From a virus (lineage: Duplodnaviria; Heunggongvirae; Uroviricota; Caudoviricetes), in IMG/VR virus record IMGVR_UViG_2897346870_000006: a stretch of 41,822 bases of DNA. One strand, given 5' to 3'. How positions within the stretch are numbered: the stretch's first letter is position 1; each line of letters starts with the position of its first letter. Of the stretch, positions 35,241 through 37,857 are shown one piece after another. The notes under the pieces are model-generated. The model worked only from the letters and a program-made list of their open reading frames with translations. It was not told the DNA's origin and searched no databases. Both the position numbers and the translations under genes were made by a program.

Positions 35241-35410
35241 TTCTTCGTTTAGACTATAGAACTAAAGGTGAAAAAATAATATTTATCAAGCAAGTGCTAT
35301 TACTAATAGTTGTTTTACTCTCTTATTTTTATTAAACATTATCATTAACAATATAAAATAATCACCCAGCGTAAATTACAATATGCTGGGGGTCGAAAGG
35401 ATAGAGAAAT

Positions 35411-36487
35411 ATGACAAAATCAATTTGTTTTTTTAATCATAAAGGTGGGGTAAGTAAAACCACAACAACCTTCAATCTTGGATGGGCACTTGCGGATGAA
35501 GGCAAGAAAGTATTGATGGTTGACCTTGATTCGCAATGTAATCTAACAGGAATGGTTCTTGGCTATGAAAAGATTGATGAGGGTTTAGATTCTTTTTATT
35601 CTAGCAGAGATAACTTAACTCTTGGACCTATTGTAGAATATTTGATTAATGGCGGACAACCTGAAGCATACCTTGAAAAAGAAACGGGAAAATTACACCC
35701 TACACTGCATGAAAACCTTCTGCTTCTTCCCGGACATTTAGATGTTTCGGACTTAGATTCACAGATAAGTGTTTCTCTAAAAATTGCTGCTGGTATTCCT
35801 GCTACAAGAAATATACCAGGGAACCTGCCAAAAATATTACAGCTAATCGCCATGAAGAATAATATTGATTACATTCTTTATGATCTCAGCCCTAATGTTG
35901 GAGGTTTAAATGAAGTAGTTCTCATGTCAAGTGACTATTTTATCGTACCTGTAGCTCCAGACTTTTTTTGCTGGCAAGCAATTCGCTCTCTCTCAAAAAA
36001 TATACCTCGCTGGCACAAAGAATTAGCATTATTTAAAGAAAATAATGATGGTAACTCTTCACAATCAATTAAAAATGCACCGCAGTTTCTAGGTATGATT
36101 CAGCAGAGATACAGGCCGCGTAAAGGAGCACCTGTAAAATCTTTCGAAAAATGGATGGCAGCTATCCGTGATGCTGTTGATTCGATCTTAGTGCCAAATC
36201 TAGAAAAAATTACCTGCATAATTCCACGAGATAAAGTGCAACATGCAATTAACAAAACAACAGTCAGTGGAGATTTATCAGCCTATGATCTTGCGCATAT
36301 TTCCGATTTCAACTCATTAATCGCAATAAGCCAACAACTAGCGACACCTGTTTTCTCCATCAGTGATCAGCAAATTCGCGATTCAGGGCAATTTGGGCAT
36401 GCCTTAAATACAATGAAATCAAGCAGAGACGCCTTTAACGAACAATTTAAAGGGCTGGCTCAACGAGTTCTAGAACTTACAAAGTAA
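35411..36487 (+). CDS. Orphan ParA/MinD-like ATPase with unassigned C-terminal domain (358 aa), in the rexAB position
   Basis: Deviant Walker A KGGVSKTT, A' motif VLMVDLDSQ, Walker-B-like YILYDLSP; AT-rich gene; no ParB-like partner or centromere-like repeats nearby. Confidence 0.75.
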   Translation: MTKSICFFNHKGGVSKTTTTFNLGWALADEGKKVLMVDLDSQCNLTGMVLGYEKIDEGLDSFYSSRDNLTLGPIVEYLINGGQPEAYLEKETGKLHPTLHENLLLLPGHLDVSDLDSQISVSLKIAAGIPATRNIPGNLPKILQLIAMKNNIDYILYDLSPNVGGLNEVVLMSSDYFIVPVAPDFFCWQAIRSLSKNIPRWHKELALFKENNDGNSSQSIKNAPQFLGMIQQRYRPRKGAPVKSFEKWMAAIRDAVDSILVPNLEKITCIIPRDKVQHAINKTTVSGDLSAYDLAHISDFNSLIAISQQLATPVFSISDQQIRDSGQFGHALNTMKSSRDAFNEQFKGLAQRVLELTK

Positions 36488-36494
36488 TGCATGT

Positions 36495-36522
36495 GCCCGG
36501 CCGCATAACCGGGCTTTACTCT
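36495..36522 (+). terminator. Intrinsic terminator downstream of the ParA-like gene
   Basis: GCCCGG-ccgcataa-CCGGGC followed by TTTACTCTTCTTTCT. Confidence 0.5.
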
Positions 36523-36672
36523 TCTTTCTCCCTGATTAATCTCATAAAAAACTCCCTCCTCATAATTCACTATGCTCAATACCTACTCCAACTTCGTGCG
36601 ATATTTTCAGTTTACAGCATAGTAAATCAGCAAAAACATTTAACTTTCAATTAATTATAGAAAAATCATAGA

Positions 36673-36724
36673 CAACAACAAATATCTACTTTTTGTTGTT
36701 GATTTTTGCTACTTTAAGTAGCAA
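36673..36724. promoter_or_regulatory. AT-rich hairpin plus perfect palindrome (candidate OL operator near pL)
   Basis: Inverted repeat CAACAACAAA/TTTGTTGTTG (36673-36682 and 36692-36701), then the 9-bp-arm palindrome TTGCTACTT-T-AAGTAGCAA (36706-36724) sharing TGCTACTT with the OR-like repeats; a CATAAT -10-like hexamer follows. Confidence 0.4.
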
Positions 36725-36805
36725 CATAATGTAAGCTATCACGGACAGGCAGGACGCCCACGAAGTAGCCGCCGGTGGCGTATGAATGACCGGATGATTC
36801 GTTAG

Positions 36806-36833
36806 CAACAAAAAAGCGCCCTACAGGACGCTT
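36806..36833 (-). terminator. Putative intrinsic terminator downstream of the coiled-coil/zinc-ribbon gene
   Basis: Imperfect hairpin AAGCGCC-ctaca-GGACGCTT followed on the minus strand by a T7 tract. Confidence 0.4.
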
Positions 36834-36843
36834 AGCTCTTTAA

Positions 36844-36864
36844 CAATCTGGATATCCACAACAG
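36844..36864. repeat. Left inverted repeat flanking the gene at 36872-37363
   Basis: CAATCTGGATATCCACAACAG; its reverse complement matches the right repeat at 18 of 20 positions. Confidence 0.65.
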
Positions 36865-36871
36865 TAGTAAT

Positions 36872-37363
36872 CTACAGATTGCCGTTAAGTTTTCTGGACA
36901 ACTCCTCAATGGATGGAGGCGATACGTAATCCGGATTTTTATTCATCAGAAACTTATTTTCACAGTGGAGGCACCTGCTTTTATGAAAAAGCTCATCTTC
37001 GCTAACCGGGAATGGTTGAAGTATCGATACTATCTTTTGTCCAAAACATTTTGGGCAAAGATGCATGGTTATGCTGCCACCGTTCACGATTACCTCCTTC
37101 GAGTATACAAAAGTACCCGACTCAAGTTGGTTAAGGATATAGCCTTCCGTCTGAGCCTCAAAGTTTTCGAATTCTGCAATTTTAGCTTTGAGAGAAGCAT
37201 TTATTTCTTGATAAGAGCCCACCAGTTCAACGAGAGACACGCATTCGCGCTGAATAGACGCAAGCTTTGAGTTCAGCTCACCAATAGCCGCATTTACTTC
37301 AGCTTGAGTTTTTGCCTCGTTCATTAGTTTTGCAATCTGGGCTGTTTCACGAATAGCCGTCAT
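36872..37363 (-). CDS. Hypothetical coiled-coil protein with C-terminal CxxC...CxxC zinc-ribbon (163 aa)
   Basis: Start placed at MTAIRETAQIAKLMNEAKTQ...; C-terminal HLCPKCFGQK...SRCLHCENKF; the ORF-track extension to 37651 translates into arginine/proline-rich text over GC-rich DNA and is unlikely to be coding; own terminator downstream. Confidence 0.5.
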   Translation of the reverse strand: MTAIRETAQIAKLMNEAKTQAEVNAAIGELNSKLASIQRECVSLVELVGSYQEINASLKAKIAEFENFEAQTEGYILNQLESGTFVYSKEVIVNGGSITMHLCPKCFGQKIVSILQPFPVSEDELFHKSRCLHCENKFLMNKNPDYVSPPSIEELSRKLNGNL

Positions 37364-37401
37364 TGCTGCCGTTAATTCAGCGATCACATTGAATACTCTT
37401 A

Positions 37402-37450
37402 TTGTTGTTGGGGATATCCAGATTAACCGAATCCTTGTTGTTGGGGAATA
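37402..37450. repeat. Right inverted repeat plus partial tandem copy
   Basis: TTGTTGTTGGGGATATCCAGATT (37402-37424) and CTTGTTGTTGGGGAATA (37434-37450), 39 bp upstream of the start codon of the 163-aa gene. Confidence 0.65.
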
Positions 37451-37676
37451 ACCAGGTCCACCTCGCCTGATGTGGCTAAAAGCAGGCACATAACAGCTAA
37501 GTATTTTCAACCAGAGAGAATCCTTAGCGTTGTGGTGAATGCGGCTCAGCGCACGCGGGTTAAGGTTGAGGCTGACAGTCGACCTTCTGTGGATACCCAC
37601 CCGCCTGGTGTGCAACCTTCGCCAGGCACCGGGAGGCACCCGGCACCACAACTTTATGCTGTGTGTAGTCCTGGCG

Positions 37677-37720
37677 GTACCAGTTTGTACCCTTGCTTCC
37701 GGCTGGTACCGTCCTTTTTT
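37677..37720 (+). terminator. Intrinsic terminator within the structured non-coding region
   Basis: GGTACCAG-(19-nt loop)-CTGGTACC followed by GTCCTTTTTTGC. Confidence 0.55.
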
Positions 37721-37857
37721 GCAAAACAGAGAAGAGCATCACCGGACGACGGGCTCATAACCCAATCCATCCGGGCGGCTGCCACCGCAGGTGTTCTTCT
37801 CTGTTTTGTGGAGAAACCAACCGACCTTGCAGGGTCGATATGATGAGGAGCAGCAAA

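Follow-up and report, generated by a model that had tools for sequence, protein, structure and literature searches.

Organization of the cI-to-yfdP interval

The window (the whole stretch of DNA analyzed, 41,822 nucleotides) represents a lambda-like E. coli prophage that, in the IHE3034 annotation, is integrated at tRNA-Arg and has its own integrase. We identified the following features in and around the interval between its repressor gene and yfdP.

34461 to 34498, no strand: two copies of an OR-type operator, palindrome GCTAyTTwAAryAGC, between the cro-like and cI genes (pattern search)
34536 to 35240, plus strand: cI-type repressor gene, HTH_3 and Peptidase_S24 (Pfam, IHE3034 annotation)
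35235 to 35267, plus strand: 10-bp AT-rich hairpin that spans the cI stop codon and lacks a T-run (inverted-repeat search, sequence)
35241 to 36744, no strand: AT-rich insert, the ParA-like cassette in the cI-to-OL slot (GC content; PhiR49_1, SfIV, and SfV alignments)
35411 to 36487, plus strand: gene for a 358-amino-acid ParA/Soj-fold ATPase without an effector domain (Pfam, AlphaFold2, Foldseek, alignments)
36495 to 36514, plus strand: GC-rich terminator-like hairpin 3′ of the ATPase gene (terminator search)
36673 to 36701, plus strand: AT-rich hairpin of 10 bp, perfectly paired (CAACAACAAA/TTTGTTGTTG), and then a T-run (inverted-repeat search)
36708 to 36722, no strand: OL-type operator, perfect palindrome GCTACTTTAAGTAGC (pattern search)
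36745 to 36849, plus strand: conserved early-left (pL) leader, beginning CAGGCAGGACGCCCACGAAGTAGCC (alignments)
36814 to 36833, minus strand: strong intrinsic terminator for the Rip1-like gene, with a stem of 8 bp and then a T-rich tail, TTTTTTGTTGCT (terminator search)
36845 to 36870, no strand: left arm of a 26-nucleotide inverted repeat bracketing the Rip1-like gene (inverted-repeat search)
36872 to 37387, minus strand: gene for a 171-amino-acid Rip1-like protein, antisense to the pL operon (profiles, AlphaFold2, Foldseek)
37399 to 37424, no strand: right arm of the inverted repeat, presumed promoter region of the Rip1-like gene (inverted-repeat search)
37499 to 37722, plus strand: structured RNA resembling STnc100/PasD within the pL leader, with an intrinsic terminator at its 3′ end (Rfam, fold)
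37722 to 37808, plus strand: long hairpin with 24-nucleotide arms between the small RNA (sRNA) terminator and yfdP (inverted-repeat search, fold)
37858 to 38220, plus strand: yfdP, the first conserved early-left gene, given as context outside the defense cargo (gene call, IHE3034 annotation)

The preliminary description of this DNA had treated the 2.6 kb between cI and yfdP as a single low-GC insert in the position of lambda rexAB. The low GC content was confirmed: the segment from 35241 to 36744 has a GC fraction of 0.36, compared with 0.512 (mean) and 0.535 (median) for the window, and is the lowest among 404 overlapping 1.5-kb windows. The length was not. Alignments showed that cI of PhiR49_1, SfIV, and SfV is joined almost directly to a homologue of the window from position 36745 onward; hence, the insert is only ~1.5 kb long, and it holds a single gene, that of the ParA-like ATPase. 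The zinc-ribbon gene, which had been placed within the insert, lies instead in a second, separate variable cassette (approximately 36850 to 37457), and the structured RNA falls in sequence, from 37458 on, that is backbone common to SfV.

The assignment to the rexAB position was upheld. The OL-type palindrome at 36708 to 36722 recurs twice, with 1 to 3 mismatches, in the cro-cI intergenic region, and this match to the two OR copies places OL and pL to the right of the ATPase gene. A CATAAT −10 element (36725 to 36730) abuts the operator and aligns with the pL −10 element of SfV-type phages; the promoter, assigned by alignment only, is putative because its −35 element is weak. The pL leader is common to SfV, SfIV, and PhiR49_1, and partly to Salmonella Gifsy-type prophages, and holds a hairpin and a boxA-like sequence, GCTCTTTAACAA, at 36836 to 36847. 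The start of cI is given as 34536 by PGAP, and the longest open reading frame (ORF) begins at 34479.

As had been described, the ATPase and zinc-ribbon genes are each followed by a terminator-like hairpin (36495 to 36514 on the plus strand and 36833 to 36814 on the minus strand, respectively). Judged by its sequence, the hairpin over the cI stop codon would be a weak or leaky terminator, which makes read-through from pRM into the ATPase gene plausible. The AT-rich hairpin at 36673 to 36701 may be a second insulator or terminator before OL.

The ParA-like ATPase and its relatives

The ORF at 35411 to 36487 (plus strand) matched Pfam AAA_31 (2e-29) and CbiA (5e-14), consistent with its earlier recognition as a ParA-type ATPase. 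The protein has a deviant Walker A motif, KGGVSKTT (K11/K16), D38/D40, and a Walker B aspartate, D158. All catalytic motifs, including KGGVSKTT, were invariant in 32 homologues at 60 to 88% identity, which span the Gamma-, Beta-, Delta-, and Epsilonproteobacteria. The C-terminal part had been described as an unassigned domain; however, the AlphaFold2 model (pLDDT, 84.5; pTM, 0.88) shows one ParA/Soj fold that includes insertions. The top Foldseek matches were Soj, ParA, and 3PG5, and Soj and other ParA structures aligned over the whole length. With PADLOC v2.0.0, the ATPase matched no model beyond the P-loop-limited PDC-M28B, and the zinc-ribbon protein matched none.

The ATPase gene is present in 109 of 5,426 complete E. 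coli genomes. The whole interval is kept in 102 of these; the co-occurrence of its parts in E. coli reflects a single prophage lineage, all copies of which are at least 99% identical. The family also occurs in Salmonella, Klebsiella, Enterobacter, Pseudomonas, Mannheimia, Acinetobacter, Helicobacter, and Desulfovibrio. In Salmonella Gifsy-type, Klebsiella, and Pseudomonas prophages and in the P22-like phages ST160 and SE1, the gene follows the repressor in the same orientation; in Acinetobacter and Chromobacterium, it adjoins Arc/Ant immunity regions. In Megalodesulfovibrio gigas, the gene adjoins HicAB, DarTG, and a type I restriction-modification methylase in an integrative element resembling a P4-type satellite. 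No conserved neighbor gene was found in the ATPase clade at ≥42% identity, across at least 30 solo loci.

GiPD474 is a ParA-type single-gene defense in Gifsy-1 of S. Typhimurium 4/74, validated in 2025 (Bosma, Noireaux, and Bowden; PMC12724215). It confers ~5-log protection against T4 and Alf5, restricts FO1, is active alone in E. coli K-12, and is transcribed at >500 TPM in the lysogen; its authors consider that it possibly acts after adsorption (PMC12724215). The repressor-adjacent slot of Gifsy, which holds remAIN or GiPD474, is a proven defense hotspot (PMC12724215). We retrieved the GiPD474 sequence by means of the authors' primer and found that the window ATPase is colinear with it over the full length at 22% identity (BLASTP). 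The window ATPase therefore falls outside the authors' homology rule of ≥70% identity and ≥70% coverage (PMC12724215). Profile comparison with hhalign indicated remote homology only (probability, 99%; E value, 4.6e-18), and the window-family profile scored the GiPD474 family at 44 to 64 bits and Soj at 56 bits. Because identity is 22% and the profile score is no better than that of Soj, transfer of function from GiPD474 would draw mainly on position, size, and architecture.

In those respects the two proteins are alike: both are ~360 amino acids long, have a ParA/AAA_31 fold with a Walker A motif and no effector domain, and are encoded by a single gene in the immunity region, directly 3′ of a prophage repressor. 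Each family is 55 to 90% conserved across Proteobacteria. They differ in their insertions and in Walker A (KGGVGKT in GiPD474, KGGVSKT in the window), and the clear HEPN-linked relatives, at 37 to 41% identity, belong to the window family. In Salmonella, an orthologue with 73% identity to the window ATPase takes the place of GiPD474, and the flanks are identical. In E. coli O157 strain 146N4, the same yfdP backbone carries a cI that is 92% identical, followed by a GiPD474 orthologue that is 93% identical. The two genes thus share a slot, are interchangeable in Salmonella, and both occur in E. coli yfdP-type prophages. These comparisons indicate that the ATPase gene and GiPD474 are alternative alleles in E. 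coli as well as in the Gifsy prophages of Salmonella. By analogy, the swap between identical flanks and the Gifsy hotspot support the earlier suggestion of horizontally acquired anti-phage cargo expressed in the lysogen from the rexAB slot. Lambda RexAB and Gifsy remAIN likewise lie between cI and OL/pL, with lysogen expression expected, although neither has sequence or fold similarity to the window ATPase; remAIN comprises three genes and RexAB is a membrane system of two proteins, whereas the window ATPase is one gene.

To our knowledge, the ParA/Soj-HEPN dyad is known from prediction alone. Anantharaman et al. (2013; PMC3710099) predicted that a ParA/Soj ATPase and a HEPN protein (MAE_18760 / RiboL-PSP type) form a toxin-antitoxin pair, and proposed that the ATPase is the antitoxin. 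The nearest relatives of the window ATPase outside the Proteobacteria (37 to 41% identity) are the ATPase halves of ParA-HEPN RNase pairs. A downstream partner of ~200 amino acids, mostly overlapping the ATPase gene, was present in 27 of 83 loci; the ATPases of these loci were all 37 to 41% identical to that of the window, except for one at 43%. All 20 partners scanned matched PF18735 (best E value, 1e-17), and every full-length partner had RRN[KQ]I[AV]H-type motifs. These dyads were mostly from Cyanobacteria, Chloroflexota, and Acidobacteria, with none among enterobacterial loci. Dyad ATPases scored 303 to 341 bits against the window-family profile (full-length homology) and share with the window ATPase the motifs FNHKGGVSKTTT, LLPGH, SDYFIVP, Q(R/N)YRPR, and DFNSLIA. 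Unlike a dyad ATPase, the window ATPase has no adjacent HEPN gene, and the solo clade to which it belongs is carried as cargo by prophages or mobile elements of Proteobacteria. When the window and seven solo loci were searched in six frames with the partner profile, nothing significant emerged for a HEPN gene or remnant. In more distant relatives, the ATPase is joined within one protein to a Ulp1-type peptidase or to a Schlafen domain. On sequence grounds, we place the window ATPase in the ParA-HEPN dyad ATPase family as a solo member; it is also distantly paralogous to GiPD474.

The Rip1-like gene and the structured RNA

The zinc-ribbon protein has a long N-terminal helical hairpin and a Cys4 zinc ribbon (C111, C114, C139, and C142), and its four cysteines are invariant in all 18 homologues, in agreement with the original identification. 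Its residues 6 to 151 matched the profile of PDB 9OOX, “ring interacting pore 1” (E value, 6.2e-17; 64.9 bits). The AlphaFold2 model (pLDDT, 88) matched the same entry in Foldseek (E value, 9e-7; TM-score, 0.71), and hhalign gave a 98.4% probability for alignment to Rip1. Entry 9OOX contains Rip1 of HK446 with the T6 small terminase, and its title names no other partner. HK446 Rip1 is 164 amino acids long, compared to 171 for the window protein, and likewise combines N-terminal helices with a Cys4 zinc ribbon. Its gene, between N and the cIII/anti-restriction genes, also has an antisense orientation and lies just within a lambdoid pL operon. The two proteins differ in sequence (~27% identity), and the bracketing inverted repeat is particular to the window. 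As had been noted, this 26-nucleotide repeat (36845 to 36870 and 37399 to 37424) brackets the zinc-ribbon gene; its arms are 85% complementary, and we roughly estimate its chance occurrence in 2.9 kb at ~1e-3. Profile and model matches thus identify the protein as a homologue of HK446 Rip1.

The segment from 37458 to 37860 folds with a z score of −6.4 relative to dinucleotide shuffles, which bears out the description of a structured RNA. The Rfam model STnc100 (RF02076) scored 40.3 bits (E value, 2e-6), below its gathering score of 47, so that the window had no match to STnc100 at the gathering threshold. The window RNA shares with STnc100/PasD a multi-hairpin structure, a conserved CACCGGGAGGCACCCGGCACCA core, a prophage location, and a terminal intrinsic terminator (stem arms at 37676 to 37683 and 37703 to 37710; T-run at 37715 to 37720). 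PasD lies near Q and the lysis genes, whereas the window RNA is found within the pL leader, ahead of yfdP. The segment from 37458 to 37857 is phage backbone and a sub-threshold relative of the STnc100/PasD prophage sRNAs. The view that the region matches no nameable family therefore does not hold: the zinc-ribbon protein is homologous to Rip1, the RNA groups with STnc100/PasD, and the ATPase is a distant GiPD474 paralogue within the ParA/Soj-HEPN dyad ATPase family.

Candidate anti-phage functions and their alternatives

The three elements (ATPase, zinc-ribbon protein, and RNA) had been regarded as one module, and their adjacency, together with retention of the whole interval in 102 of 109 ATPase-carrying E. 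coli genomes, would fit a three-part system. However, the E. coli copies represent one lineage at ≥99% identity, and OL/pL separates the parts. PhiR49_1 has the zinc-ribbon gene and the RNA without the ATPase, and SfV has the RNA only. Conversely, in the prophages examined from Salmonella, Klebsiella, and Pseudomonas, the ATPase is present and no zinc-ribbon gene is annotated, ST160 has the ATPase only, and HK446 Rip1 was deposited with the T6 small terminase and no further partner in the title. A three-part system is contradicted by this distribution, and we consider it extremely improbable. The ParA/Soj fold, the intact deviant Walker A motif, and the label “ParA-like partition protein” (PHROG 164 and NCBI) could instead point to a true partition ParA that stabilizes the phage genome (in a plasmid-like stage, for instance), with ParB and the centromere elsewhere. 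Yet the prophage has its own integrase and is inserted at tRNA-Arg, the annotation of its 42 kb includes no ParB, and a repeat search found no centromere-like repeat array, as the preliminary description had stated. Matches of the ATPase to NCBIfam partition equivalogs were confined to the P-loop and far under the cutoffs (NF041546, 55.8 against 180; SopA, 21 against 725; RepA, 40.8 against 348). The solo loci, numbering at least 30, share no conserved neighbor, and the nearest relatives are paired with HEPN RNases rather than ParB. The ATPase thus groups apart from partition ParAs, the outcome opposite to the one that had been named as refuting a defense role. We regard the partition reading as largely refuted and very improbable.

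Two further alternatives retain the ATPase as a solo protein. It could be an orphan antitoxin or anti-defense factor, the regulatory half of a ParA-HEPN pair retained alone by the prophage, that neutralizes HEPN RNase toxins of the host or of rival elements. The antitoxin role proposed for dyad ATPases (PMC3710099) would favor this, as would retention in the solo clade of every motif common to the HEPN-linked clade; in addition, on one metagenomic contig, a solo-clade gene adjoins an NTase-HEPN gene whose partner is a GiPD474-family ATPase. We nevertheless judge it unlikely, given that no dyads were found in enterobacterial loci, that no HEPN partner sequence was detected in the window or the solo loci, that the positional allele GiPD474 alone protects E. 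coli K-12, and that the repressor-adjacent slot holds defense genes expressed in the lysogen (PMC12724215). Alternatively, the ATPase could be a lysogenic-conversion factor acting, like MinD, FlhG, BcsQ, or TadZ, on a host structure (division, motility, cellulose, or pili) to reposition or regulate it, with any phage exclusion arising indirectly from receptor loss. The ParA/MinD superfamily includes such regulators, JGI automatic annotation names some homologues BcsQ, and very high conservation across hosts fits a conserved host target. Against this, matches to BcsQ, MinD, MipZ, and FlhG-type models were limited to the P-loop and below or barely at the cutoffs; hosts ranging from enterobacteria to Desulfovibrio and Helicobacter share few such structures; and GiPD474 possibly acts after adsorption, according to its authors (PMC12724215). 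We consider lysogenic conversion quite unlikely.

Our preferred reading, which we hold to be probable, is that two independent single-gene anti-phage cassettes flank the left operator/promoter and are followed by backbone leader RNA. As the two genes are independent and horizontally swapped, the region is most likely a small anti-phage arsenal and not a three-part system. By analogy with their relatives, a predicted defense role for the ATPase and Rip1-like genes is well supported by position and homology. The ATPase would be transcribed in the lysogen by pRM read-through and/or from its own promoter, would form an ATP-sandwich dimer as all deviant-Walker-A ATPases do, and would block some incoming phages after adsorption, like GiPD474. 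In this reading, its family descends from ATPase-HEPN RNase pairs in which the ATPase is the regulator or sensor, and the prophage clade has lost the RNase, so that the ATPase must act alone or through a host factor. The least certain step is how: it may bind or sequester phage DNA or protein in an ATP-dependent manner, or may work via a widely conserved host factor.

The Rip1-like protein, by analogy with its HK446 counterpart, would recognize the small-terminase ring of an infecting phage and kill or arrest the cell; a pore mechanism is suggested by the PDB molecule name only. Given the antisense site in the pL operon, prophage induction would silence the gene by convergent transcription. 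The RNA at 37499 to 37722 would be an STnc100/PasD-type terminated leader or sRNA of the backbone, outside both defense genes. More tentatively, and with considerable doubt, we propose that solo ParA-type ATPases (the window family and GiPD474) form a distinct immunity class without a dedicated toxin, in which the window family is an independent second lineage. The members of this class would be positioning-type ATPases that dimerize with ATP and derive from the regulator of ATPase-HEPN toxin pairs. Such proteins might coat, sequester, or mislocalize phage DNA or the replication or packaging machinery in an ATP-dependent manner.

If the ATPase is confirmed as a defense protein, it would represent a second, widely distributed lineage of effector-less ParA-type defense proteins, and its HEPN-linked relatives would be the natural comparison for what it senses and how it acts without an RNase. 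Should the toxin-free class prove real, that comparison would show a change from sensor to effector. A confirmed ATPase would also explain strain-level differences in phage susceptibility among ExPEC/APEC (IHE3034 and APEC O18), with relevance for phage therapy. More broadly, both flanks of OL/pL in lambdoid prophages would be cassette-exchange slots for single-gene defenses, useful for mining more systems.

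Limits of the AT-rich insert and its place between cI and OL

The low GC content described for the DNA downstream of cI is real: at 36%, against a mean of 51% for the window, 35241-36744 is the lowest of 404 overlapping 1.5-kb windows. This stretch holds a single ORF of 358 aa, followed by a GC-rich terminator-like hairpin. The preliminary description had taken 2.6 kb as one insert, and that extent did not hold. PhiR49_1, SfIV, and SfV pass from cI straight to sequence homologous to 36745 onward; in these phages, the cI terminator is followed by a TTGACA/CATAAT promoter with operator repeats and then by the homologous sequence. 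Given this direct junction, we conclude that the AT-rich insert ends at approximately 36744. The zinc-ribbon gene lies in a second variable cassette, which PhiR49_1 carries, SfIV has replaced, and SfV lacks. From 37458 onward, the structured RNA is part of the backbone common to the phage relatives. The parts of the interval are as follows.

35241-36744: AT-rich insert
35411-36487 (+): ParA/Soj-fold ATPase gene (358 aa)
36708-36722: operator-type palindrome
~36850-37457: second variable cassette
36872-37387 (-): Rip1-like zinc-ribbon gene (171 aa)
37499-37722: STnc100-like RNA segment

The palindrome at 36708-36722, GCTACTTTAAGTAGC, is perfect, and two copies of it with 1 to 3 mismatches lie in the cro-cI intergenic region (34461-34498). 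Five strand-matches were observed in the window, compared to 0.75 expected by chance. Next to the palindrome is a CATAAT element, which lines up with the -10 of pL in SfV-type phages. Together, the operator palindrome and the aligned CATAAT place OL/pL to the right of the ATPase gene, which therefore lies between cI and OL. This is the slot of rexAB in lambda, as had been proposed. The pL promoter itself is putative because its -35 element is poor.

Other cargo was seen in this slot. In E. coli KFu022 (L105 4326-5025), whose cI is 93% identical, the slot holds not the ATPase gene but two overlapping hypothetical genes of 115 and 126 aa, and these are additional defence candidates. The P22-like phage ST160 has a DUF3024 gene between its c2 and ParA-like genes (L107 3521-3862), and the annotation mentions the similar orf24 of SE1. 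The slot can thus take more than one cargo gene. A 67- to 68-aa minus-strand ORF found downstream of the ATPase gene in Salmonella and Klebsiella was considered as a small conserved partner and was rejected: it is retained in Salmonella when GiPD474 replaces the ATPase and hence belongs to the Gifsy backbone. This ORF is absent from the window, and its Salmonella (L003 9139-9345) and Klebsiella (L096 8146-8349) versions are only weakly similar (29% identity over 41 aa).

A solo ParA-type ATPase family and its relatives

The 358-aa protein has strong AAA_31/CbiA matches, in keeping with its description as a ParA-type ATPase. A separate, unassigned C-terminal domain was not borne out: the AlphaFold2 model (pLDDT 84.5, pTM 0.88) is one ParA/Soj fold with insertions, and the whole chain aligns with the structures of Soj, ParA, McdA, and MinD. 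The closest solved structure, DIP2308 (3PG5), is itself uncharacterised. As had been stated, no ParB or centromere was found in the prophage, and partition-family models match the ATPase only at the P-loop. Neither the ATPase nor the zinc-ribbon protein matched a specific family in PADLOC v2.0.0, NCBIfam, or Pfam.

Homologues of approximately 357 aa with 60-88% identity occur in Enterobacteria, Pasteurellaceae, Pseudomonas, Acinetobacter, Chromobacterium, Laribacter, Desulfovibrio, and Helicobacter, with the signature lysine, the Walker A lysine, D38/D40, D158, and many more residues invariant. In family loci with at least 42% identity, the gene is always solo and has no conserved neighbours. 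It is directly downstream of and co-oriented with the prophage repressor in Salmonella Gifsy-type prophages, Klebsiella, Pseudomonas capeferrum, and the P22-like ST160 and SE1, in the last two between c2 and gene 24. It adjoins Arc/Ant immunity regions in Acinetobacter and Chromobacterium. In Megalodesulfovibrio gigas, it is carried by an integrative element of P4-like layout, adjoining HicAB, DarTG, and a type I restriction-modification methylase, and in Mannheimia the surrounding part of the chromosome has ParE-toxin, RepB-primase, and transposase genes as well. Pf1-type filamentous Pseudomonas phages (AY324828.1 [Pf1], 949-1959; PV296014.1) encode a full-length homologue with 30-31% identity, annotated as a "putative regulatory protein."

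Literature searches combining ParA-like or ParA family with anti-phage terms, or using RiboL-PSP or MAE_18760, returned nothing directly relevant; AAA_31 combined with phage brought up a study of GiPD474. The gipd474 gene is a single gene in the Gifsy-1 immunity region of S. Typhimurium 4/74 that encodes a 361-aa ParA/AAA_31 ATPase (Bosma, Noireaux, and Bowden 2025; PMC12724215). GiPD474 reduces plating of T4 and Alf5 by approximately 5 logs and restricts Felix O1; a plasmid-borne copy is active in E. coli K-12, and expression in the lysogen is high (PMC12724215). We recovered its sequence from IMG/VR through the authors' internal primer. The Salmonella orthologue of the window ATPase (P0010) was rejected as GiPD474 itself, as the authors' primers have no match in its gene.

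GiPD474 and the window protein are not orthologues; they share 22% identity in a colinear alignment over the full length. The probability in hhalign was 99%. The GiPD474 profile scored the window family at up to 58 bits, above any solved ParA (at most 32 bits). The window-family profile scored GiPD474 at 44-64 bits, no better than Soj (56 bits). The two proteins belong to separate families of the ParA superfamily. Position, by contrast, links them strongly. Gifsy prophages that carry GiPD474 and those that carry a 73%-identical orthologue of the window protein have flanks that are 89-97% identical; this identity stops at the 3' end of the repressor gene that both have and resumes just after the stop codon. 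E. coli O157:H7 146N4, where the yfdP backbone is the same, carries a 93%-identical GiPD474 orthologue behind a cI that is 92% identical.

More distant relatives of the ATPase are paired with a second gene. In 27 of 83 loci, all but one of them at 37-41% identity, a gene of approximately 200 aa lies 3' of the ATPase gene, in most cases with an overlap; Cyanobacteria, Chloroflexota, Acidobacteria, and Spirochaetes are among the sources of these loci. All 20 partners scanned matched the RiboL-PSP HEPN family (best E value, 1e-17), three of them also matching the MAE_28990/MAE_18760 family, and every full-length partner has an RRN[KQ]I[AV]H-type motif, the Rx4-6H catalytic signature. These gene pairs are the ParA/Soj-HEPN dyad of Anantharaman et al. 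(2013; PMC3710099), who predicted a toxin-antitoxin system in which the ATPase is the antitoxin. Solo and dyad ATPases have common motifs over their whole length. No HEPN remnant was found in the window or in seven solo loci; the effector has been lost from the prophage form. Still more distant relatives (proteins P0181, P0182, P0241, and P0268) are fused to a Ulp1/C48 (RickCE-like) peptidase, to Schlafen AlbA_2 and HATPase_c_4, or to TPR, which are typical conflict-system architectures. The HEPN pairing and these fusions thus mark the ATPase clade as one of conflict-system NTPases.

On a metagenomic Logan contig (SRR21361704_118; L103 4622-7636), ATPases of the window family and of the GiPD474 family flank a Polbeta-NTase/HEPN fusion gene. 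This small chromosomal islet, with both solo families and a HEPN protein, adjoins parAB, gidB, mnmE, yidC, and rnpA.

The Rip1-like cassette and the backbone RNA

The zinc-ribbon gene had been described as bracketed by inverted repeats, and a 26-nt inverted repeat does bracket it. Its product, encoded on the strand opposite to the ATPase, has four invariant Cys residues (CxxC...CxxC). The gene has its own strong terminator, so that here too, as after the ATPase ORF, the terminator proposed for each gene is present. The family (PHROG 1244, no Pfam) occurs in Enterobacterales prophages at 51% identity or more, and its distant members (27-30% identity) include hkaP of HK620 and orf25 of D3112/DMS3-type Pseudomonas phages. 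An 18-member profile matched PDB 9OOX, in which ring interacting pore 1 (Rip1) from phage HK446 is bound to the T6 small terminase, over almost the full length and including both CxxC pairs (E value, 6e-17; hhalign probability, 98.4%). The AlphaFold2 model (pLDDT 88) matched the same structure in Foldseek (E value, 9e-7; TM-score, 0.71), with no other credible match.

In HK446, Rip1 is flanked by N and the cIII/anti-restriction genes and runs counter to the pL operon; place and orientation are the same in the window. The naming of the PDB entry suggests that the Rip1-like protein would sense the terminase ring and then form a pore. From its placement, pL transcription on induction may silence the antisense Rip1-like gene, so that packaging of the prophage itself would be spared. 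A motif of approximately 18 nt (GAATCCTTGTTGTTGGGG-like) occurs in three direct copies at 37396-37446 and 37518-37535. They are found about the right arm of the inverted repeat and upstream of the RNA, in the likely promoter region of the Rip1-like gene.

The structured GC-rich segment is also real: 37458-37860 is far more stably folded than its shuffled versions (z = -6.4). Within it, 37499-37722 matched Rfam STnc100 at 40.3 bits, below the threshold of 47 (E value, 2e-6); the match takes in the conserved CACCGGGAGGCACCCGGCACCA core and the terminal intrinsic terminator. Zhu, Shabalina, and Storz (2026 preprint) connect STnc100 with PasD, a prophage sRNA. Because SfV conserves the RNA but lacks both candidate defence genes, we conclude that the RNA is part of the backbone early-left leader. 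With regard to a put-like or N/nut antitermination role, the Rfam search returned STnc100 only and the literature was uninformative. A PGAP/RefSeq "frameshifted hypothetical protein" pseudogene covers the RNA (37532-37843), and SfIV gp34 merges the same stretch with yfdP; both are probably misannotations of the structured RNA.

In the putative pL transcript (36814-36847, + strand reading), AGCTCTTTAACAA comes immediately after the hairpin that acts as minus-strand terminator of the Rip1-like gene. This stretch, common to PhiR49_1 and SfIV and not found in SfV, could be a nut- or rrn-like antitermination site; AGCTCTTTAACAA matches the rrn boxA, UGCUCUUUAACAA, at 12 of 13 positions.

Host distribution and probable defence role

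The prophage is lambda-like, with a Nu1-type small terminase, portal, gpJ, Lom, and Q-type antiterminator, early-left genes of the yfdP/yfdQ (SfV) type, and its own integrase; it is integrated beside tRNA-Arg and folD. In the window, the cro-like (YdaS) and cII-like genes run leftward and cI (HTH plus S24) runs rightward. The interval is 100% identical in the IHE3034 prophage, APEC O18, and approximately 100 further complete genomes. Among 5,426 complete E. coli genomes, 109 have the window ATPase gene and 71 have a GiPD474 orthologue. The IHE3034 prophage also encodes iss (increased serum survival lipoprotein, bor-like; L108 11076-11369, a position that coordinate mapping puts within the window) as well as a Lom/Ail family gene. 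These genes make the prophage a virulence-associated element of ExPEC/APEC strains, too.

Position, allelic replacement, and homology all give good support to the proposal of defence cargo in the rexAB slot. What did not stand is the single module, which resolves into two unrelated single-gene cassettes and a backbone RNA. Nor are the parts without a nameable family: each now has a named relative (GiPD474/ParA-HEPN, Rip1, and STnc100). On balance, we consider it probable that the ATPase and the Rip1-like genes are both anti-phage defences. In the most likely outline, the solo ATPase would dimerise in an ATP-dependent manner and link this to recognising some component of the phage after adsorption. 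The new element is the ATPase family itself, a candidate defence family distinct from GiPD474. This family evidently derives from ATPase-HEPN pairs, a relation not noted in the literature that we reached.
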